Part shown: one piece after another, positions 21,046 through 64,000 of the stretch
Layout of the letters: each line of letters opens with the position of its first letter
Numbering within the stretch: position 1 is the first letter of the stretch
Origin: a phage
Strand: one strand, 5' to 3'
Length of the DNA: 64,000 bases
Sequence record: PZ445530.1
The notes under the pieces: generated by a model
Databases searched by the model: none
Seen by the model: only the letters and a program-made list of their open reading frames with translations
Told to the model about the DNA's origin: nothing
Position numbers and translations under genes: made by a program

Positions 21046-21225
21046 ATGGCTATTATTGCAAAGACTGAGATCGTAGGCTTAGATTCTATTCTCCTCGCAT
21101 ATGAGGAAGCTATAGAAATGTATGTGGTTTCCTATGGTGAGTATATTCGTGAATATAAATCTATTGATCTGGCTTTTGAATGTTATATTCGCCAGGTAAA
21201 TAAAGCATATGATGATTATCGTTAA
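21046..21225 (+). CDS. hypothetical small protein (59 aa)
   Basis: Full cassette: ttgaca..tagaat promoter, gggggg-caacaag-cccccc hairpin, CA-rich leader, SD aagagga. Confidence 0.4.
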   Translation: MAIIAKTEIVGLDSILLAYEEAIEMYVVSYGEYIREYKSIDLAFECYIRQVNKAYDDYR

Positions 21226-21310: not shown

Positions 21311-21505
21311 ATGGCGCTTAAAAAACTAACAAGCAATACTCGTTGGGATGAAATCGACGGGGAAGTTTACATTTTTGCCCGTAAACCAGGGGATCAAAAA
21401 TGGTCAAAGGCTTTTACTTGCCATCCTGCAACAATAGATCTGATAAAAAGTCAAGGACTACGTGAAGCAGTAGCAAGAAGTTTACTGATCCCTTGTAAAA
21501 ATTAG
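21311..21505 (+). CDS. hypothetical small protein
   Basis: Promoter ttgaca..tagaat, hairpin gcggca-atga-tgccgc, SD aagagag. Confidence 0.45.
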   Translation: MALKKLTSNTRWDEIDGEVYIFARKPGDQKWSKAFTCHPATIDLIKSQGLREAVARSLLIPCKN

Positions 21506-21582
21506 TTTGACAACAGTCAACAATCTGGTAAAGTGTACTACATAGCGCGGGAATACTTCCCGCCATTAATGAGGGTAATTTA

Positions 21583-21720
21583 ATGAAAACTTTCAACGCA
21601 ACAGCCTCGACAATTGGTTATATTATTACAGTACAAGCCGTGGATCTGGTAGCAGCAGCAAACAAGATTAAAAAGATGATTCCGCCAGGTAGTGAATTTT
21701 CCGTTTGGGAAGTAAAATAA
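21583..21720 (+). CDS. hypothetical small protein (45 aa)
   Basis: Promoter ttgaca; hairpin gcgggaa-tac-ttcccgc; leader cattaatgagggta shared with next gene. Confidence 0.35.
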   Translation: MKTFNATASTIGYIITVQAVDLVAAANKIKKMIPPGSEFSVWEVK

Positions 21721-21803
21721 ATCTTGACAATAATTTATTACTTGATAGACTGTATTTCGTAGTGCGGGGAAATAAGGCAACGCCCATTAATGAGGGTAGA
21801 ATC

Positions 21804-21908
21804 ATGTTAGAGAAAATTTTCACGGTTGTAGTAGTTGGCCTGGCATTATCGGTTGGATGGGTTGCAACTATGGCTAACATGATCCTATCTTCCCACGGTA
21901 TCGGTTAA
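21804..21908 (+). CDS. Small hydrophobic peptide (34 aa)
   Basis: Leader cattaatgagggtagaatc; hydrophobic VVVVGLALSVGWVATMANMIL. Confidence 0.3.
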   Translation: MLEKIFTVVVVGLALSVGWVATMANMILSSHGIG

Positions 21909-21909
21909 G

Positions 21910-22134
21910 GTGAATCAAATGATCACGAATAAAACAGGTAAAACGGAATTCTTGCGCGGCTTGCAGGTCGGCAAGCCTGAGATCTGGCATTGCACTAAAA
22001 CACCACGTGACGAAATGAAAGACTTCACCGCCACGCTGCAACGGGTAAAGATATCCATTACGCAGAAAAAAGCCTTGATAGTGGTGGAAGGTGAGATCCC
22101 TCAAGCCGTTGTTATAGTTGAGCGTACAGCATAG
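21910..22134 (+). CDS. hypothetical protein
   Basis: ORF immediately after previous stop. Confidence 0.45.
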   Translation: MNQMITNKTGKTEFLRGLQVGKPEIWHCTKTPRDEMKDFTATLQRVKISITQKKALIVVEGEIPQAVVIVERTA

Positions 22135-22225
22135 TTTAATTTATACCGATACCCGAAAATTAACCAACAAAGCATAAACAGGCGGTTGCCGCCGCCTTAA
22201 ACGTAGCAGAAAGAGGATAGATACA

Positions 22226-22459
22226 ATGAAAAAGATGATCGCAGTAGTTGCCCTGGTTCTGGAAGAAGAAATTAAAGCCATGCACCATAGCAACAGATTT
22301 ATTGGTGACGCGCAGGATAATATGAAAGTATGCCGCCATAAAGTTAATGAAGTGCTTAAAGAGTACGGCTATAAAGATCTTATGATCAAACGTGAGGAAA
22401 AATTCCGCTACCGTAACGACCTGGCAAATCGGATTTTTGAAATATACGAATCATTATAA
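22226..22459 (+). CDS. hypothetical protein
   Basis: Leader hairpin aggcgg-ttgccg-ccgcct, SD aagagga. Confidence 0.5.
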   Translation: MKKMIAVVALVLEEEIKAMHHSNRFIGDAQDNMKVCRHKVNEVLKEYGYKDLMIKREEKFRYRNDLANRIFEIYESL

Positions 22460-22478
22460 TTTTTTAACTGAATTATCA

Positions 22479-22504
22479 AGGGGCTTAGGCCCCTTTCTTT
22501 TTGT
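22479..22504 (+). terminator. Intrinsic terminator closing the plus-strand early block
   Basis: aggggc-ttag-gcccct hairpin followed by ttctttttgt. Confidence 0.6.
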
Positions 22505-24935
22505 CTGCTCTTCTCCTACCATAAACGGCCCTACCTGGCAAGTGGAATAATTGACTAGCCATCAATCCCACATACTGTACAAATATACATGGAAAATAAC
22601 TATTGCATAATTTTTCATTGTGTGGTAGCAAGTCCATTTTTACCCGTTTTCTCTCCCAAAAGTGCACGTAATGCCGCTATTGCACAAATTTTAACCTGAT
22701 GCACATCTCCAATATCTTGTCAACAACTAAAAATCTTTATAAGTCATACACTTACACAGCATCGAAAGCGTGTTCTACGCGAAAAATCGAGTATAACTAT
22801 AGCCGCCAGATCTCAGAATTCACGTACGCACGCCATTCTATAGCCTGCAAAGTATTTATTCCAACCACAGAATAACGGAATAGTCAATACCTGCATAAAA
22901 TAATTATTCGTGCAAACTGCATAACATAAATCAGCTCAGGTGTCAACATTTTTCGTAAACAGTCCGAAATTATAACGATGAGTTATCATAAACAGAGAAA
23001 TCTTTAGTCGTCTAATGTTTACTGTACATTACTATACTGACTGGAATCATTAGATGACTAAGAGAAAGATAAGAAATAATTAATAATGTAATTATTTTAC
23101 CTGTAACAATAAGGCAACTATGCAAACGAATGGCATGGCGCGACGGAGTCGCGACATAATATAAAAGCAGTAACCATCACCCCCGTGATAGTTTGTCTGC
23201 AAACTATTAATCAGATCATAGTTGCCTTGTATTTAGTTAATCATGACATAACAAGCAAGGCAACTATAGATCTGCTAATAGTTGCCCTGCTTTTATATTA
23301 TGTCATGCTAATTATAATCAGTGCGATTATTGTCATGTATAATTATTGTCATGCAAACGAATGGCATGGCTGATTATCGGTGTGTAAACAGTCAATCATG
23401 TAAATGGTTAGCATGTGAACAATCAGGAATGTAAACAATCCAGTGTGTAAACTAATAGGTGTGTAAAAGTGTCATGTTGTGTCAGTTAGGTCACATTATG
23501 TCAGACAAGTTTTTCTCCTCTTTGTCAAGTGCTGCATGAAAAATTTACAAACTGGTATGGTAGCATTTTTGCGGCCCTGTTTACATTCAGTAATGTATGT
23601 ATAATCCTTGTTGTGTGGGCGTTTAGACGTCTAGACGGTTGGAAGTCCACAGGTCAATATCTAATCTATCGGCTGCTAACTATATCCCACACAAATAGCA
23701 AGAAATATGATTGTTATATGCGTAAACTGTAACTCATGTTATCAATCCCTGTATGGATCGCCAGTGGTGCGCATAATGGGTATTATGTTAAATTGCCCGT
23801 AATGATAACTATTCTCACAATGATAGGTATTCTCATTCATCCACATAAAATAGGTTGCAAATGTTGTGCCACTGTGTGAACGGCCTGGCCTATTAATTTG
23901 CCTCACTGCCTTGATATTTGAGAATTGTTATAAGAATGAGAAGTATTCCCATTTCGTCCGCCTGGCAGCACTCCTGTAGGTCAGGTCAAAATCGTGGTAG
24001 AATTGGGCCTGTTCAGATATTTCTGGCTGACTCTTCAGGTCTGTGTGGGAAAAGCCAACCTCTCCGGCGGGGCAGGGGGTCATGACGGGAAAATTGCAGG
24101 TCAATTAAAAATTTACGTGGTGTATGAAGCGCTCTTCAGGTAAGGCATGTATTATGGGATGAAACCCGCTTCAGGCAATGATATTTGTGGGTGTGATATT
24201 TGCTGGAAAGCCAGATATGACGGGACTCCCGGCGGGGATGGGGTAGTACAGACAGGGAAAATATGAGAATGTAGTTGGGGAAATTGATCAGACAGGTAGA
24301 GTATGGAATATGTTACAAGTATGTTAAATATGGAGGTTGAATATCTGTAGGATTTGTGTGTAAAATCAAAGACTTAAGGGGTGTTGTGGTATTTTCTATA
24401 AATAATTCAAGTTTAATAGGCAATATTTGTCTCTATCCGTTTTGTGTGGTAAACAGATTCAGATTAGATTGGTTTACAAGTGTATACATAATATACAAAT
24501 TAAAGATACAAGAAACCCCCCTCCCCCCTTCGGCTACCATTCACCTTTTCCTCTGACTGGTACTTAAACACTTATTCAGACTCTTCAGGTTATCACCCAT
24601 ATATCATATGGCAGTGACTGGTGTCCTCCGGCCCCTCTTTCGTCACCCGTCCGCTTCGCCATGCTAATGCCATAGCCAATGGTTCGGTTGTTCACCCTGT
24701 TCACTCAGGTGTATCTCCATACCCCTTCAAACCGAAGAGAACAGAAAACCCGAATTACTCGGTAAAAGAAAAGAGAAGAACTTAATTTTATCAGGATAGG
24801 CAAGAATGTCAAGGCATGACTGCTCACTAAACAAGCAAACAGTCATGTGTGGAAGGTAAGTGATTGTGGTGGTGGGAAATTTAGTTGAAAGATGTGTTAT
24901 AGGTGCTTCCAGCACTTTAGCCGGGCAGCTAATTG
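22505..24935. repeat. Repeat-rich non-coding region at the convergence of plus and minus transcription
   Basis: No convincing ORF; inverted repeats ggcaactat/atagttgcc; tgcaaacgaatggcatggc x2; tgtaaaca-type iterons 23380-23470; CTCTTCAGG x4; duplicated tccggcggggcagggg unit. Confidence 0.5.
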
Positions 24936-57331: not shown

Positions 57332-57865
57332 TTAAAGTTCCATAAAGTTTTCTACAGTTTCAATAAATGCTTTATCAGAGAAAGCGTCAACAGCACCGTT
57401 AAACCATACAGGGATCCCGCGATCCTCATATTGATAAAGGTCGCTACGTGAAATGCCACTTCCATCTGCACTCTGCGAATCATACTTGTTTACAATCAGC
57501 AGTTTTGTGCCTTTACAAGTAGCAGGAAACAATTCCCAGTTAAAATTAATAACTGTGTTAGAACAACCTACCAGGATCACCATATCATTGCTTGTGAGAG
57601 ATGTCAACAGGTCATACATGTCTGTATACTTAGGAGCAACCTCACCGAAGAACACTACATTGGGCTTAACCCAGGTATACTTGCCTGTATCTACCTCCGT
57701 GTATCCGATATTTTTAATTACATCATTACCTTCAGCATCTTCGTAGGTGATTTCAGGCAAATACCCGTGGACATGTAAAATATCTTCATGTTTTACACCA
57801 GCACGCTCCAGCAAATCATCTACATTGGTAGTAAGGTTGATCACACGACCAGACCAGCGGGTCAT
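57332..57865 (-). pseudogene. Sir2-family protein fragment lacking the N-terminal NAD-binding motif
   Basis: Sir2 motifs LTTNVDDLLERAG, HVHG, KPNVVFFGE, LVGCSNTV present; GAGIS region absent; no SD; stop 5 codons upstream in frame. Confidence 0.5.
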
Positions 57866-57920: not shown

Positions 57921-58370
57921 ATGAATGCGGGAATCATCGCCGAGTGGAACTCTGTTGTGTCACCTGCAGACACTGTGTTCCACTTGGGAGATATTGCGTG
58001 CACTAATGATAAGAATATCAACAACTTACTTCCAGATATTCTAAATATGTTGAACGGACATATTATTCTTGTTCGTGGCAACCATGACACAAGGACGACT
58101 GTCAGAATTATGAAAGAGTTCGGTCATGAGGTTGTAGATTATTACGAGCTTCGCCACAACAAGAATTTAATCTGTATGAGCCATTACCAGTTTGCAAAGT
58201 GGAACAGAAAGCCTCACGGATCAGTCCAACTGTTCGGTCATGCTCACGGAACCACACAACAGTTGTTTGGCAGGCAGCTTGATGTCGGTTGGGATGTGTG
58301 GGGGAGACTCTTACCATTAGAAGAGGCATACCGTATTGCAATGAGTTTTGATATTGACAGCAGGGAGTAA
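57921..58370 (+). pseudogene. Calcineurin-like metallophosphoesterase lacking N-terminal motif I
   Basis: Motifs II-V present (HLGDIA, GNHD, SHY, GHAHG) but DxH motif I absent; no SD; track N-terminal extension is antisense to Sir2 fragment. Confidence 0.5.
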
Positions 58371-58417
58371 TCCCTGCTATTTTAAAGAAAATTGCCACAC
58401 AAGGAGAATCAGGAGAT

Positions 58418-58768
58418 ATGAAAGATGGGGATAAGCTGCTATATCTTAAAGTCCCCCTTGAAATACTATCTATGTCAAAAGTTTTGAATGACACAACTGG
58501 GGAGGTTGTTGTTCTTGACTTGTATGACAAGATCGTATACTGCTACCTGCACAACTGGTATAAGCTTGGAGGAAATTCACGCTTCACACCAAGCACAAGG
58601 AAAATTGCAGCAGATGTTGGGATAAAGAAAACAAAAGCAGCAGCGTGCGTTAAAACTTTAGAATGTGCAGGAGTGGTTGAAACATCCACACAAGGGAGAG
58701 GTAAAAGATGCACATTTTCCAAAGTTTTGCCACCAGAAGAAGTTATTCGGATGTCAACAACTGGTTAG
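58418..58768 (+). CDS. Putative HTH DNA-binding protein
   Basis: HTH-like TRKIAADVGIKKTKAAACVKTLECAGVV; SD ggagaa; sits next to palindromic array. Confidence 0.4.
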   Translation: MKDGDKLLYLKVPLEILSMSKVLNDTTGEVVVLDLYDKIVYCYLHNWYKLGGNSRFTPSTRKIAADVGIKKTKAAACVKTLECAGVVETSTQGRGKRCTFSKVLPPEEVIRMSTTG

Positions 58769-58843
58769 ACCAGTAAAAACTTAAATATCTGTACTATAAG
58801 GATTCGTATGTTTTATGTTCGCCATGGAACGGATACTATTAAC

Positions 58844-58924
58844 TGTCCGTGATACGGACACTACTGTCCGTCACGCGGACACATCTGCCCGTAATACGGA
58901 CACTAACTGTCCGTGATACGGACA
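58844..58924. promoter_or_regulatory. Array of four tandem 17-bp palindromic operator-like sites
   Basis: tgtccgtgatacggaca (58844-58860, 58908-58924) plus variants tgtccgtcacgcggaca and tgcccgtaatacggaca, 21-22 bp apart. Confidence 0.55.
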
Positions 58925-59429
58925 CATAAAGAATATAACTAAAATAACTAAATAATAAAAAATAAAAGATCTAGTACTTATGGTACTAAGTACATATACT
59001 TAACTTATGTAGAATATACTAGATCCTAAGTACCATGTTTTAAATTTATTACTTACTATGGGCAGTGTCGGCCCTTCATTGGCACTCGCCTACGAGGGGC
59101 GAGATGCCGGGCCTCCTTGGTGCACACAATAACAGAAGTTCATACATGCAGGTCTGTTAACATGTGTGGGAGCGAAGCGATAGCGCAGGCCAAAGGCCGA
59201 GCACTGATGTGGACCACCGACGAAAGCTTGCCAGCGCCGTAAGGAGTCGGTTGAGAGTCTCCCGCGCGAGCTTGGATGAAGTTTATGTGTGGAAACTGAC
59301 AAGAAGGCCCCTAAATCGCTCCACAGCTATATAAACTATACCAGGTAATGCAATCGCACCAGTTTGATAGAAAAGCTCGTTACAAAGCGATACAGTGAGT
59401 TTTTCTATAACTTGAAGAGGGGGGCAGCT

Positions 59430-60008
59430 ATGGGTTCACGCAAAGATGACCGTGAAAAGATTGCAAAACGTTATCAGAATGAAGAACAGATGGAGAAAAC
59501 TTTCAAGTGGAAGCCCGGTTTCCAGCGTAATCATTCTAACGCTCGTGATCGTAAGCATCCGGATAAGTGGCTAACACCGCCAAATGATGGCATGCAGGTT
59601 GGTGATGAGAAGGAGATGTCACCTGGAAAAGATGGCAACTACATTCGCACTAAGGAAGCTGGTCCAAAGGATGACAGCTATCTTGTAGATAAGGTTCTTA
59701 ATGGTATTGATGTAGATGTTGACACTGCACGAAACCTTTTTCTTGGTTGGTATCGTACAGGGTTTTTCGACATCAAGGCTATTCGTCGTGTTTGTGATAT
59801 TAAAAAGTCTGCCTATGATGATGACTCCCTACATCGCACTCTGAGACAATACTCAGAGAGATACGGTCATCCAGTTATCACTCTTGACGATATTAACGAA
59901 GTGATGTATCATGCAGAGGTTGTTGCAGGTAGATTCGGTGATGCATATCTAGATATCCTTTCTGCAAAGGATGAGGTAATGTTAAATAAGATTTACTATG
60001 AACGCTGA
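59430..60008 (+). CDS. hypothetical protein
   Basis: ORF; SD gaagagggggg before ATG 59430. Confidence 0.45.
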   Translation: MGSRKDDREKIAKRYQNEEQMEKTFKWKPGFQRNHSNARDRKHPDKWLTPPNDGMQVGDEKEMSPGKDGNYIRTKEAGPKDDSYLVDKVLNGIDVDVDTARNLFLGWYRTGFFDIKAIRRVCDIKKSAYDDDSLHRTLRQYSERYGHPVITLDDINEVMYHAEVVAGRFGDAYLDILSAKDEVMLNKIYYER

Positions 60009-60870: not shown

Positions 60871-61209
60871 ATGGCGGATACAACTAAAAAGCGTCGCCGT
60901 AGAGGCAGACCTCTGAAAGAGGAGTCCAACGCCATTCAGCTAGAGAAGAACATCCTTGATATGAAGGAATCTTTTATAGCGATGGTTCCAGAAGCTCACA
61001 AAGTTCTAAGAGAGCTGATGTTGGACCCGAAAACCAAACAAAATATTCGTCAAAGCATTGCAGAGTATGTTCTTGATAAGGCAGACCGAATGCAGGAAGA
61101 ATATGATGAGATGTTTGGTGAAGAGGAAGAGGTGGTAGTAGAAGAGGCTGAAAAACCAGCACCTTTTATGCCATTTACCACAGAAATACAACCTGTTAGC
61201 AATAGCTAA
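60871..61209 (+). CDS. Small protein with AT-hook-like motif
   Basis: KKRRRRGRP N-terminus; acidic C-terminal half; SD ggagga before ATG 60871. Confidence 0.5.
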   Translation: MADTTKKRRRRGRPLKEESNAIQLEKNILDMKESFIAMVPEAHKVLRELMLDPKTKQNIRQSIAEYVLDKADRMQEEYDEMFGEEEEVVVEEAEKPAPFMPFTTEIQPVSNS

Positions 61210-62540: not shown

Positions 62541-62939
62541 ATGATTTCAGTTTTAACATGGCTGAGTAGGTATAGAGGGATCATAAAAGGTTTAGTTTTT
62601 GCAGCTGCGCTAGGTACAGCTTATCTTGGAGCCGTATATTGGTTTAACTTTAAGCTTAATGAAGCCTACCAAGAGGGTGTGTCAGCAACAGAGTTAAAGT
62701 GGGAACGGATCCTTGATCAGCAACAAAAGCAGGCCGACAAAATTAAAATGGGCCACGCAGAGGAGGTTAAAAACCTTGAAAAATCCCTTTCTGATCTGCA
62801 GGATAAATTAAATATGGCTGAGAAGGCAGGTAAAGAAAAGCAGATTATCTACCTCCAGTCACCTGAAGGCAAGAAGTCAACACTCCCTGATCAGCTTATA
62901 GATATTTATAATGAGAGTATCAATCAGGAGGATCGATGA
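62541..62939 (+). CDS. i-spanin (Rz-like)
   Basis: N-terminal TM segment IIKGLVFAAALGTAYLGAVYWF then coiled-coil-like periplasmic domain; adjacent to lipoprotein gene. Confidence 0.6.
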   Translation: MISVLTWLSRYRGIIKGLVFAAALGTAYLGAVYWFNFKLNEAYQEGVSATELKWERILDQQQKQADKIKMGHAEEVKNLEKSLSDLQDKLNMAEKAGKEKQIIYLQSPEGKKSTLPDQLIDIYNESINQEDR

Positions 62940-63223
62940 GAGTTGCTACACTGGTTATTGTGTGCTTGTTATTATGTGGGTGTGCAACCAACGTTGAGAG
63001 AGAATACAAGATTGACCCTCCGGATGTAGGAAGGTTGATTGTTAAACCCCCGGAAGGTGCCATGAAACCACCTGCTAAAGCTATGCCTTTGAAGAAAGGT
63101 GCGCCAGATGCAGTGAATTCTGGCATTATGAGGGATAATAATCTGTCTTGTAGCAATGATAGAGCTAAATTGATCATTTTGCAAGACTATATTAGAACAC
63201 TGTTTCCAAAGGAGAGCGGTTAA
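62936..63223 (+). CDS. o-spanin (Rz1-like lipoprotein)
   Basis: Lipoprotein signal with LLLCGCA lipobox-like cysteines; Pro-rich mature part; start overlaps i-spanin stop. Confidence 0.6.
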   Translation: MRVATLVIVCLLLCGCATNVEREYKIDPPDVGRLIVKPPEGAMKPPAKAMPLKKGAPDAVNSGIMRDNNLSCSNDRAKLIILQDYIRTLFPKESG

Positions 63224-63648
63224 TGTCTAAGATTTACGGACCGTGTTCTGAAAAGCAGAAGATGATCCTCGAAAACGATGCAGATATTTTGGTAATCGGC
63301 GGTGCCGCAGGGTCTGGCAAGTCGTTCCTCTTGCAATTGATGCCACTTAAAATTATTGATGACCCCCACAGCTCTGTGGTTATGTTCCGAAGAACAACCC
63401 CGCAGTTGGAAGGTGAGGGTGGACTATGGCCTAAAGCGGTAGCTATTTATAGTGATCTGCCTGAAAACATTAAGCCAAAGTTCAGAGAGAAGGATCATAA
63501 GTTCATTTTTCCACGGTTTGATCCGAACACTGGCAAGTGGGATAGAAGCAAAAAGGGAGCTGTTGTAAAATACTGCCACATGGAGTATGTACAAGATAAG
63601 CTTAACCATCAAGGGCTTGAGTACACCATGGTTTGCTTCGATGAGGGT
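63223..63648 (+). CDS. Terminase large subunit, exon 1 (ATPase N-terminus)
   Basis: Walker A VIGGAAGSGKS; Walker B MVCFDEG at exon end; stop codon lies inside group I intron. Confidence 0.7.
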
Positions 63649-64000
63649 TAATTTGTAGCTCTCGTAAAACCTCCCTAATTGCGGGGAAATCTTTACTATT
63701 AATACCACCAACCTGTCATGGTAACATGATAGAGGCTTCGAAGAGAGATCGAAGGTATGGTAACAGTGTGTTAATTTAGATAATCCGCAGCGAAGCATCC
63801 GAGAGGATGAACGTTCAACGACTAGTCGAAAGACGTAGAATCAAGCGATTCGAAACGGGAGGATAAGCGGTTGTTGTCGCTTATAAGATATAGTCTGGTC
63901 TGCATGGAGACATGCAGCTGCCTGAAAATGGCGGGGCAAGACTAGCGACCTTGCCCGAACATAAACGACACAATTCGAATGGGAGCAGATAGACTATCTG
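63649..64000 (+). mobile_element. Group I intron interrupting terminase large subunit (3' end beyond window)
   Basis: P aattgcggggaaa 63677-63689, Q taatccgcagcgaag 63781-63795 (identical 15-mer to pol intron), R gttcaacgacta 63813-63824, S aagatatagtc 63885-63895; no long ORF inside. Confidence 0.65.

Follow-up and report, generated by a model that had tools for sequence, protein, structure and literature searches.

A candidate lambda-type replication origin next to a winged-helix protein gene in rV5-like coliphages

Introduction

What do four tandem palindromes, placed just behind a gene for a small helix-turn-helix protein, do for an rV5-like coliphage (Vequintavirus)? The original prediction, made from the letters of sequence record PZ445530.1, took them for the binding array of a dimeric regulator. 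We analysed the same stretch of 64,000 nucleotides, called the window below, together with related genomes. The description of rV5 reports that a replication origin was sought and not found (PMC3606486), and in the library searched we found no later paper that assigns the replication origin of rV5-like phages. The locus looks most like an element of a known kind that had not previously been pinpointed in these phages. From sequence comparison and a structure model, we estimate a probability of about one in two that the four palindromes are the iterons, the AT tract next to them the unwinding element and the 116-aa protein the minimal initiator of a lambda-type origin.

Results

Four phased palindromes at a single locus

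Reading of the sequence and a repeat finder both placed the palindrome TGTCCGTGATACGGACA at 58844–58860 and again at 58908–58924, as had been predicted. Between these copies lie TGTCCGTCACGCGGACA (58865–58881) and TGCCCGTAATACGGACA (58886–58902). They had been described as variants with one or two mismatches; both are present at 58865 and 58886, but compared with the exact 17-mer they carry three and two. When only the two 6-bp arms are compared, the mismatches are 0 and 1, so that what is conserved is TGTCCG-N5-CGGACA, with 5 bp free to vary in the centre. The four 17-bp sites start 21, 21 and 22 bp apart, in agreement with the predicted spacing of 21–22 bp, and the array extends over 81 bp.

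58844–58860, no strand: candidate iteron 1, arms TGTCCG and CGGACA, centre TGATA
58865–58881, no strand: candidate iteron 2, arms TGTCCG and CGGACA, centre TCACG
58886–58902, no strand: candidate iteron 3, arms TGCCCG (one arm mismatch) and CGGACA, centre TAATA
58908–58924, no strand: candidate iteron 4, arms TGTCCG and CGGACA, centre TGATA

In phage Aya, a T-to-C change turns iteron 2 into a perfect 7+3+7 palindrome, and the arm mismatch of iteron 3 is invariant across four aligned genomes. A search with GTCCGT-N4-CGGAC, allowing one mismatch, gave 8 strand-hits, each of the four sites being counted on both strands, where 0.35 ± 0.61 would be expected; none of 100 shuffles reached 8. In the 64-kb window the array is the sole occurrence of TGTCCG-N5-CGGACA, and the 137,947 bp of the complete rV5 genome have no site with at most one arm mismatch outside the array, which lies at about 65.0–65.3 kb there. 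Because the site is found at a single locus of the genome, there is no regulon.

As a single strand the array folds far better than its shuffles (z −7.0), which is trivial for palindromes. This fold would suit an RNA element, four hairpins in the 3′ UTR of the winged-helix mRNA that act as stabilisers, processing sites or weak terminators, and the array would indeed be transcribed from the promoter at 58354 if RNA polymerase is unimpeded. The strict 21–22-bp phasing, however, has no meaning for RNA hairpins, iteron 3 has a conserved C-A mismatch in the middle of its stem, no hairpin is followed by a T-run, and the same arrays lie inside the initiator coding regions of other elements. We regard an RNA element as very improbable.

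A minimal winged-helix protein upstream of the array

The small helix-turn-helix gene that the prediction had placed before the array proved to be real.

58354–58383, plus strand: sigma-70-like promoter of the winged-helix gene, TTGACA-18-TATTTT with TG (promoter scan)
58418–58768, plus strand: gene for the 116-aa winged-helix protein (rV5 gp075, ORF79, bas54_0212), candidate iteron-binding initiator
58769–58839, no strand: spacer from stop codon to array, the least conserved segment of the locus

The promoter is annotated as P76 in the rV5 RefSeq record. The array begins 76 bp past the stop codon (58766–58768), outside the coding sequence, and transcription from 58354 would pass through it. 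Promoter and terminator scans found no intrinsic terminator after the gene.

Protein-only homology searches returned near-identical Vequintavirus proteins and nothing else. An exhaustive HMMER search added a few relatives at 30–35% identity; its matches to repeat proteins were spurious and were discarded. A search of IMG/VR with the family alignment returned no related loci, and the sole tblastn match among plasmids was a Vequintavirus genome deposited as a plasmid. Two Pfam families scored just under their curated cut-offs, HTH_36 (PF13730; 24.5 bits, cut-off 25) and DUF6945 (PF22182; 27.4 bits, cut-off 28). PF13730 is listed for the cluster representative of the protein in a precomputed table, and the homologues P0009 and P0011 are both above the HTH_36 cut-off; the DUF6945 cut-off of 28 is passed by P0011 (31.9), with P0009 below it (25.1). 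At E values up to 1, Pfam gave no Phage_rep_O and no RepA_N match for the 116-aa protein, and its PDB sequence matches to RepA had E values of only about 0.8.

Public records annotate the gene as a ‘putative transcriptional regulator’. The protein matches PHROG 12838, ‘replication initiation protein’, at 5e-80, and more weakly the initiator PHROGs 8102, 428 and 270. Its remote homologues (30–35% identity) match the PHROG family ‘replication initiation O-like’ and DnaD-like families; the O-like PHROGs are reached by these homologues only. The initiator labels of PHROGs are annotation by homology.

For the fold we used an alignment-based AlphaFold model (pLDDT 75) and set aside a single-sequence model (pLDDT 39). 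In order, the model shows helices 35–50, 60–67 and 71–83 and a two-strand wing. The whole of it is one winged-helix domain; a C-terminal domain for recruitment of a helicase loader or helicase is absent, and neither Pfam nor the model revealed a nuclease, AAA+ or other effector domain. The top Foldseek match in the PDB was 4ro3, an uncharacterised protein, followed by the RepA_N initiators 4pql, 4pt7, 5kbj (a Rep–DNA complex) and 4pta, with E values of 6e-4 to 9e-3 and TM scores of 0.54–0.58 over 82–107 columns. These rank above the regulators CodY, LexA and MarR; winged helices of CodY and LexA are among the weak matches by both sequence and fold. A viral match was ICP1 Gp88 (E 1.3e-4), whose N-terminal domain is a RepA_N iteron binder (PMC8263062). 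The protein is thus predicted by the model to have the fold of the RepA_N DNA-binding domain.

The AT-richest tract of the genome adjoins the array

An AT-rich region with a further palindrome had been predicted beyond the array, and both were found.

58925–59060, no strand: AT-rich tract, candidate DNA-unwinding element (AT content, conservation)
58935–58952: tandem 9-mer ATAACTAAA, two copies, within the AT tract
58959–58971, minus strand: one perfect match to the E. coli oriC 13-mer consensus GATCTnTTnTTTT, within the AT tract
58973–58987: palindrome agtacttatggtact (AGTAC-N5-GTACT), within the AT tract
58980–58990 and 59026–59036: inverted repeat, within the AT tract
59061–59365, plus strand: GC-rich conserved non-coding block, from the AT tract to the next gene

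No other 120 bp, in the window or anywhere in the rV5 genome, are as AT-rich as those in this tract (80.8%; the runner-up has 75%). It has no significant single-strand fold (z −0.98), and a search of the locus for DnaA boxes and IHF consensus sites found none. Identity to Aya, SYGMH1 and rV5 is 75–90% in the spacer and 96.5–100% in the array; across Vequintavirus genomes, the AT tract is 94–100% identical, the flanking genes 88–92% and the spacer 75%. The conservation of the array and the AT tract thus exceeds that of the flanking genes.

Rfam gave no match to the array, the AT tract or the GC-rich block; in the whole window it found tRNAs and a group I intron in the terminase gene and nothing else. 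A structured RNA in the GC-rich block was considered and rejected, the fold z-scores of the two strands (−1.3 and −1.2) being unconvincing. Likewise, the small intergenic ORFs of some records (rV5 ORF78, bas55_0215–0217) were rejected as coding, since their substitutions lack codon periodicity (9/8/8 per codon position in the ORF annotated in the GC-rich block). One annotated small ORF merely overlies the array.

Related arrays in other phages and in bacteria

Homologues of the protein in phiPMW, an Erwinia Henunavirus and metagenomic phages are likewise encoded beside repeats spaced 22–23 bp, and the repeat cores GGACA/TGTCC and GGTACA/TGTACC are related in two of the groups of distant homologues. 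The remote homologues are encoded at divergent junctions with an AT-rich tract and repeats at 22–23 bp; the junction of one contig has a primase-helicase gene on one side and a gene for DNA polymerase A on the other. The repeats lie immediately upstream of the homologue's own operon in phiPMW, the Erwinia phage and contigs L013 and L014. The 192-aa gene downstream of our locus is restricted to the genus and therefore could not be used for locating the syntenic site in other genera of Vequintavirinae.

Arrays of TGTCCG-N5-CGGACA with 20–23 bp spacing were also found in at least seven unrelated elements, phages or prophages on viral and bacterial contigs (L056/L086/L017, L095, L096, L140, L142, L143 and L147), where they lie in O-like initiator genes. 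With 2–7 copies each, they occupy the interior or the 3′ end of O-like, HTH_36 or DnaD-like genes, in the linker past the winged helix. A search with a profile built on the rV5 family picks up the proteins of L142 and of the L056 type, and the identity of the O-like contig proteins to the rV5 protein is 16–26%; pairwise BLASTP of the rV5 protein with the L056 protein, the sole pair run, was not significant.

In bacterial genomes, the same palindrome pairs flank genes for sigma-54 activators (bEBPs) in 6–7 contigs. The idea that such arrays are specific to origins was given up on account of these two-copy versions; the motif alone therefore cannot identify an origin, and for the same reason only arrays inside O-like genes were counted above. 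A sigma-54 enhancer was rejected for the phage array, as the phage protein has no AAA+ domain and no −24/−12 match lies near the array.

Transposon insertions and the surrounding genes

A transposon map of the related phage Bas54 bears directly on the locus. The winged-helix gene was hit at 17 of 20 TA sites with a mean count of 13.6, and the spurious ORF over the array at 4 of 7 sites with a mean of 18.1, whereas neighbouring genes have mean counts of 135–171; both the gene and the array ORF are classed as ‘Intermediate’, about 10-fold depleted and dispensable (preprint 10.1101/2025.11.20.689424). This matched and specific fitness cost suggests that gene and array work together. Together with the repeats beside the distant homologues, it supports, though only indirectly, a link between the 116-aa protein and the neighbouring array. 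As both tolerate insertions in Bas54, they are not the sole essential origin. In the same map, the GC-rich block tolerates insertions, and a non-coding region of about 2 kb elsewhere (window about 21.3–24.9 kb, rV5 104–106.6 kb) is without any (preprint 10.1101/2025.11.20.689424) and may be where the main origin lies.

The cumulative GC skew reaches its global minimum about 1.5 kb from the locus. Such a minimum is uninformative, coinciding with the switch in transcription direction (Kropinski et al., PMC3606486), and GC skew was discarded as origin evidence because the minimum falls on the strand switch.

The region from 58769 to 59430 was scanned and contains no sigma-70-like promoter, no terminator and no sigma-54-like promoter; phage-specific promoter types are outside such scans. 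For the genes immediately downstream, sigma-70 promoters are annotated further on (P75, P74 and P-tRNA). Further to the right, the spanins begin at 62541 and the large terminase at 63223, and the terminase operon starts about 3.7 kb from the array.

These surroundings allow the array to be weighed as a transcriptional operator or roadblock, where the winged-helix protein would be a repressor or activator that binds the four sites cooperatively, and would either control a hidden phage-specific promoter in the AT tract, serving the GC-rich leader and the rightward genes, or block read-through from 58354. Such phased dyad sites are of the kind bound by dimeric helix-turn-helix proteins, and this part of the original prediction stands; the layout is classic for such a regulator, and the label in public records and the weak CodY and LexA matches agree with it. 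In phiPMW, the Erwinia phage and contigs L013 and L014, the repeats are placed like autoregulatory operators. The missing terminator between the gene and the DNA that follows would fit as well, a specific promoter would be in keeping with the well-conserved AT tract, and the equal, moderate cost of hits in gene and array fits lost repression as well as a lost origin. However, neither a sigma-70-like nor a sigma-54-like promoter was found by the scans at the array or close to it, the site is unique in the genome, and the best annotated structural and profile neighbours of the protein are initiators. The downstream genes are non-essential and have their own promoters, so neither lost activation nor lost insulation easily explains a 10-fold cost. 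Moreover, identical arrays elsewhere lie within O-like initiator genes and therefore cannot be promoter operators there. Control of transcription, the meaning that the prediction had implied for the array, is thus the less supported part of it; we consider it rather unlikely, but still a serious alternative to an origin.

Small helix-turn-helix proteins with tandem sites also include small terminases and centromere binders. The array might accordingly serve another DNA transaction, as a pac site, as a site for partition or tethering, or, where the phage is in conflict with satellites or defence systems, as a decoy or a target. The terminase operon to the right would fit the first of these, and for the last there is a precedent in ICP1, which directs a RepA_N-like domain at the origin of its satellite (PMC8263062). 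But a unique pac site should be near-essential, and gene and array tolerate insertions; the gene does not adjoin the large terminase, and the small essential gene at 60871–61209 (bas54_0220) is a better candidate for the small terminase. In addition, a virulent phage has no obvious need for partition, and the protein has no nuclease or other effector domain. We think such a role improbable.

Discussion

An origin fits the locus better than an operator because no sigma-70-like promoter or terminator accompanies the array, its site is unique, the neighbours of the protein in fold and profile space are initiator-like, and the AT maximum of the genome adjoins it. Dyad 17-mers at 21, 21 and 22 bp directly beside this maximum have the layout of ori-lambda, and one locus in 138 kb is what would be expected of an origin and not of a regulon. 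Other observations point the other way: the protein lacks a helicase-recruiting domain, and the repeats of the remote homologues lie upstream of the gene's own operon, where plain autoregulation is equally natural.

For a lambda-type origin we infer the following course of events. Dimers of the 116-aa protein would fill the four TGTCCG-N5-CGGACA sites, which face the same side of the helix at intervals of two turns, and the nucleoprotein complex would bend the DNA and aid melting of the adjoining AT tract, perhaps assisted by read-through transcription that starts at the promoter of the gene itself. The T7-type primase-helicase of the phage could then load on the bubble; a loader-recruiting domain would not be needed, which would explain why the protein consists of a DNA-binding domain only. 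Forks would depart both ways, co-oriented with the two large diverging gene blocks. As the module aids growth yet is not indispensable, the phage must be able to start replication without it, by recombination-dependent initiation or from another origin.

Ori-lambda consists of four dyad iterons of about 18–19 bp followed by an AT-rich region. The rV5-type locus shares with it the four tandem dyads about two helical turns apart, the AT-rich tract after them, read-through from an upstream early promoter and a winged-helix DNA-binding domain, and relatives of its protein match O-like PHROGs. In lambda, however, the iterons lie inside the O gene, in its inter-domain linker, whereas the rV5-type array begins 76 bp past the stop codon. 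Unlike lambda O, the 116-aa protein has no C-terminal domain recruiting a helicase loader and no match to Pfam Phage_rep_O, and it comes from a virulent myovirus of 137 kb that encodes a T7-type polymerase and primase-helicase of its own. Growth of lambda requires O and ori, whereas Bas54 can do without the module.

The closest annotated folds are those of the RepA_N initiators (RepA of pSK41 and pTZ2162), PLE RepA and ICP1 Odn, which have winged-helix domains recognising tandem iterons at an origin (PMC8263062). They differ in a second domain, a nuclease in Odn and otherwise a host-specific replication domain, and the rV5-type protein has no RepA_N match at the sequence level. The O-like contig genes share identical palindrome arms and a winged helix of the HTH_36 or O-like kind alongside, and the L056 protein (133 aa) is also near-minimal; in contrast to the rV5-type locus, their arrays are intragenic, as are the iterons of staphylococcal RepA, which are located within the rep gene, and most of their proteins have a DnaD-like or other C-terminal domain. 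We found no experimental studies of these proteins.

T7 and T4 are virulent phages that bring their own replisome, and at the T7 primary origin and at T4 oriF and oriG initiation is aided by AT-rich DNA downstream of a promoter. Individual T4 origins are dispensable because recombination-dependent replication can take over, which parallels the non-essential rV5-type module, but the T7 and T4 origins are not known to have iterons or a dedicated origin-binding protein. Lambda OR and OL, like other sites of autoregulated helix-turn-helix repressors, also place several dyads for cooperative dimers beside a regulator gene. These operators, however, overlap promoters and usually number three; the rV5-type array overlaps no promoter-like site, comes after the gene and adjoins the AT maximum.

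Taken together with the arrays in O-like genes, the locus allows a wider reading that we offer tentatively, as possible but doubtful: vequintaviruses would carry a split, minimal lambda replicon, and TGTCCG-N5-CGGACA at a spacing of two helical turns would mark lambda-like origins of a widespread class that so far has no name. Of an O-type initiator, nothing but the winged helix that binds the origin would have survived, with iterons and unwinding element outside the gene. The complex would do no more than open the DNA so that a T7-type primase-helicase can load itself, and this would be one of several redundant starts. The class would be common to phages and prophages of at least five bacterial lineages, with initiators that have diverged past easy recognition.

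Phages of the rV5 type are widely isolated and are used in typing, in biocontrol and in the BASEL reference collection. The 116-aa protein, the 81-bp array and the 135-bp AT tract now give a precise and testable candidate for an origin in these phages. If the protein is a regulator instead, the locus is an ordinary operator array. An origin would account for the intermediate fitness defect shared by gene and array in Bas54 and, if true, would mean that a lambda-style initiator can shrink to its DNA-binding domain in a phage that supplies a self-loading helicase, and would provide a portable pair of origin and initiator for engineering.

Palindrome array and its conservation

A small HTH-type gene followed by four tandem 17-bp palindromes had been claimed in the original prediction, and both were confirmed. 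The features of the locus are:

58354-58383, sigma-70-like promoter of the 116-aa gene, corresponding to rV5 promoter P76
58418-58768, 116-aa winged-helix ORF (rV5 gp075/ORF79)
71-bp spacer between the stop codon of this ORF and the array
58844-58924, array of four palindromes (iterons 1-4)
58925-59060, AT tract, 135 bp
59061-59365, GC-rich block, 305 bp, with the next gene at 59430

The palindromes, TGTCCG-N5-CGGACA, start at 58844, 58865, 58886 and 58908, giving a spacing of 21, 21 and 22 bp. Their conservation is restricted to the two 6-bp arms, the 5-bp centre being variable, and iteron 3 has one mismatch in an arm. The description of the inner copies as one- or two-mismatch variants failed for the full 17-mer (three and two mismatches); counted in the arms alone, the numbers are zero and one. 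The cluster is far beyond chance, with eight strand-hits against 0.35 expected and none of 100 shuffles reaching eight. When the rest of the genome was searched, in the 64-kb window and the complete 137,947-bp rV5 sequence, no site with one arm mismatch or fewer lay outside the array. In rV5 the array occupies 65,152-65,232, about 1.5 kb from the divergence point of the DNA-metabolism and morphogenesis blocks, and public records annotate it as 'repeat_region' at most.

The reading with the best support, to which we give a probability of roughly one half, is a lambda-type origin in which the iterons and an unwinding element are combined with a minimal initiator. The steps from binding and melting to loading and firing are inferred: the initiator would consist of nothing but the origin-binding winged helix (the 116-aa protein), the phage's own T7-type primase-helicase (rV5 ORF230) would load with no dedicated recruiter, and loss of the module would be covered by recombination-dependent or other initiation.

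More than 100 genomes of Vequintavirus (rV5-like) coliphages match the region 58300-59450 at 99-99.7% identity. Among matched records, 18 labelled 'Campylobacter phage' (MG0656xx) show about 99% identity to E. coli rV5-like phages at the array locus, and CP057073.1 (137,565 bp) is a Vequintavirus genome deposited as an E. coli plasmid; the host and the replicon given in these labels seem questionable. Of the Vequintavirus genomes found, Aya diverges most (89.7% protein identity).

Identity of locus segments, Aya versus the window
Array: 96.5%
AT tract: 94.1%
Flanking genes: 91-92%
Winged-helix gene: 87.7%
Spacer before the array: 74.6%

The ranking is the same in SYGMH1 and rV5, and because of it we regard the array and AT tract as more constrained than the surrounding proteins. 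The Aya array has three changes, one of which makes iteron 2 a perfect 7+3+7 palindrome.

Sequences following the array

The most AT-rich 120-bp stretch of the genome lies within the AT tract (80.8%, versus 75% for the runner-up). The tract contains a tandem 9-mer and small inverted repeats, and at 58959-58971, minus strand, the window's only perfect match to the E. coli oriC 13-mer consensus, GATCTnTTnTTTT; this match was noticed post hoc. No DnaA box was found in the AT tract region.

Scanning 58769-59430 revealed neither a sigma-70-like promoter nor an intrinsic terminator, and no sigma-54 promoter. Such promoter scans are blind to phage-specific promoters, which leaves room for the main rival explanation, that the array is a transcriptional operator or roadblock; we hold this to be possible but doubtful. 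That the palindromes act as RNA hairpins seems to us very improbable.

The GC-rich block has about 55-60% GC in a 43% GC genome and is conserved and apparently non-coding; approximately 59064-59116 and 59160-59257 are nearly invariant, and an 18-bp deletion in rV5 falls within its variable part. It had no match in Rfam, and its fold z-scores were not significant. Small ORFs annotated there in some records were rejected as coding, their substitutions being without codon periodicity.

The winged-helix protein

The 116-aa protein is labelled 'putative transcriptional regulator', 'DNA-binding protein' or 'hypothetical protein' in public records and 'replication initiation protein' in RefSeq. It scores slightly below the Pfam cut-offs for HTH_36 and DUF6945, and matches phrog_12838 'replication initiation protein' (5e-80) and, more weakly, three further initiator PHROGs. 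It belongs to a very narrow family. Searches by tblastn and by word index gave hits in Vequintavirus only, all with 87% identity or more, and additional relatives (30-35% identity, 182-217 aa) were obtained by exhaustive HMMER search. These remote relatives, together with the phiPMW and Erwinia Henunavirus homologues, match 'replication initiation O-like', DnaD-like and primosomal PHROGs.

An AlphaFold model built from a 15-sequence alignment (pLDDT 75, pTM 0.74) found its best PDB fold match in a Vibrio cholerae domain whose function is unknown (4ro3). Next came plasmid initiators of the RepA_N family: 4pql, 4pt7, 5kbj (which is a Rep-DNA complex) and 4pta; CodY, LexA and similar transcription factors ranked below these initiators. 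Fold matches among viral models were 'replication protein' and 'replication initiator' entries, the phiPMW DUF6945 protein and ICP1 Gp88, whose N-terminal domain is a RepA_N-like binder of the PLE satellite origin iterons (PMC8263062).

Several remote relatives have an acidic tail at the C-terminus, finishing in P-F; this reads (A/E/V)-P-F in homologues P0009, P0011, P0014, P0017 and P0019 and in the 133-aa protein of viral contig L056. The tail recalls the C-terminal tip of SSB, which docks replication proteins; the rV5 protein is without it.

Repeats in remote relatives and other elements

Remote homologues likewise lie close to repeats, which lends indirect support to a link between protein and sites. 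In phiPMW a divergent junction beside RNA ligase and PNK genes is directly followed by the homologue, PMW_115, and upstream of this gene are three GGACA-AAA-TGTCC palindromes, 23-33 bp apart, with a purine- and AT-rich stretch. The Erwinia Henunavirus homologue is preceded by an AT-rich tract and two 17-bp repeats 23 bp apart. Two metagenomic phage contigs carry an AT-rich tract, two AGGTACA-ending repeats 22 bp apart and inverted copies, all in the divergent region before the homologue's operon; in one of them this junction lies between the primase-helicase and DNA polymerase A genes. The repeat cores of phiPMW and the metagenomic contigs are alike and also resemble the rV5 arms (TGTCC/TGTACC). 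Repeats placed upstream of the homologue's operon also speak for an operator or roadblock.

IMG/VR was scanned for CTGTCCG-N5-CGGACAC; in species genomes the scan was for adjacent pairs of the palindrome. Both scans, ascertained on the motif itself, gave the identical palindrome in tandem arrays with 20-23 bp spacing. In the elements listed below the array lies within, or at the 3' end of, an initiator-like gene, always in the linker after the winged helix.

Palindrome arrays in initiator-like genes
L056/L086/L017, viral contigs: 4 copies; 133 aa, HTH_36
L095, viral contig: 3 copies; 251 aa
L096, viral contig: 6-7 copies; 380 aa
L142, Treponema: 2 copies; 352 aa
L143, Kiritimatiellae: 5 copies; 275 aa
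L140, Actinoplanes: 6 copies; 418 aa
L147, Parachlamydiaceae: 5 copies; 347 aa

The products have an N-terminal winged helix and match O-like, DnaD-like or replisome-organizer families, and the rV5-family profile weakly detects the L142 and L056-type proteins. Ori-lambda, inside gene O, has the same arrangement.

The palindrome in two copies is also present beside sigma-54 activator genes, in 6-7 bacterial contigs, so the motif alone is not diagnostic. These genes (Sigma54_activat plus HTH_8; bacterial MAG contigs, L136-L172) adjoin palindrome pairs or short arrays with 20-bp spacing, and an unrelated class of DNA-binding proteins thus reuses the site architecture. We think it unlikely that the rV5-type array serves another DNA transaction (pac, tethering or conflict functions).

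Transposon insertions, skew and a natural deletion

A transposon insertion map of the Vequintavirus Bas54 is available from the HIDEN-SEQ preprint (10.1101/2025.11.20.689424).

Insertions in Bas54 (TA sites hit; class; mean reads per TA site)
bas54_0212, ortholog of the 116-aa gene: 17/20; Intermediate; 13.6
bas54_0213, small annotated ORF overlying the array (window 58815-58916): 4/7; Intermediate; 18.1
bas54_0215, in the GC-rich block: 4/6; Intermediate; 78
bas54_0210, 0211, 0214 and 0216, neighbours: 135-171

By these counts the gene and the array are dispensable, each at a roughly tenfold cost in abundance and to the same degree. The equal cost fits one functional unit that is helpful, not essential; that the array is non-essential also lends strength to the operator or roadblock reading.

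The same map has no insertions in a non-coding region of about 2 kb between convergent blocks (10.1101/2025.11.20.689424). Its counterpart here is the ORF-free stretch 21337-24859 (rV5 about 104.0-106.6 kb), which may be the rival seat of the main origin or of another essential function, or encode essential RNAs. These 3.5 kb are without an ORF of at least 80 aa, have a GC content of 0.38-0.40 and lie just left of the cumulative GC-skew maximum (~25 kb). Within them lie a perfect 18-bp inverted repeat (23153-23170/23287-23304) and, on the minus strand at 23856-23871, TGGCAC-N5-TTGCA, the one perfect match to the sigma-54 consensus in the window. A 56-bp unit containing a promoter-like core, TTGACA-N17-TAGAAT, is present three times, at 21224, 21499 and 21716.

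Kropinski et al. sought the rV5 origin by skew analysis and saw changes only at transcription-direction switches (PMC3606486). Our profile agrees, its global minimum falling on the strand switch, 1.5 kb away from the array; because of this coincidence, GC skew was given no weight as origin evidence. Relative to rV5, the window has a 2,078-bp deletion (rV5 66224-68301) by which PNK, RNA ligase, ORF83 and all of the divergent intergenic region are lost and the phosphoesterase and Sir2 genes are shortened at their 5' ends, so that minus- and plus-strand ORFs abut head to head. The junction has a 9-bp overlap at 57853-57861 and was present in none of 120 Vequintavirus records in the phage collection. 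Provided that the source was viable, the phage can do without the divergent junction where the skew has its minimum, while the array 1 kb away was kept.

Further along, 60871-61209 encodes a protein of 112 aa whose N-terminus reads KKRRRRGRP and whose C-terminus is acidic; it falls in phrog_3330, a family of unknown function. In Bas54 the ortholog, bas54_0220, is essential (1/20 TA sites hit). Possible roles are that of the small subunit of the terminase or of some other essential DNA-binding protein. A group I intron (Rfam RF00028, 84 bits) at 63639-63917 within the large terminase gene agrees with the rV5 annotation of a three-part terminase with an HNH endonuclease.

Relation to known origins

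In function and layout the locus is similar to ori-lambda/O and the RepA_N iteron replicons. It differs from them in that the iterons are outside the initiator gene, the 116-aa protein has neither a second domain nor a match to their sequence families, and the locus is dispensable. Its most fitting place is within the known iteron-origin class, as a new and unusually reduced member. The initiator label is already in RefSeq, by homology; our literature search found no publication tying the 116-aa protein to the array or placing an origin in rV5-like phages. An origin here would not surprise a specialist; it does bring an open point about these widely used phages within reach of a simple experiment.
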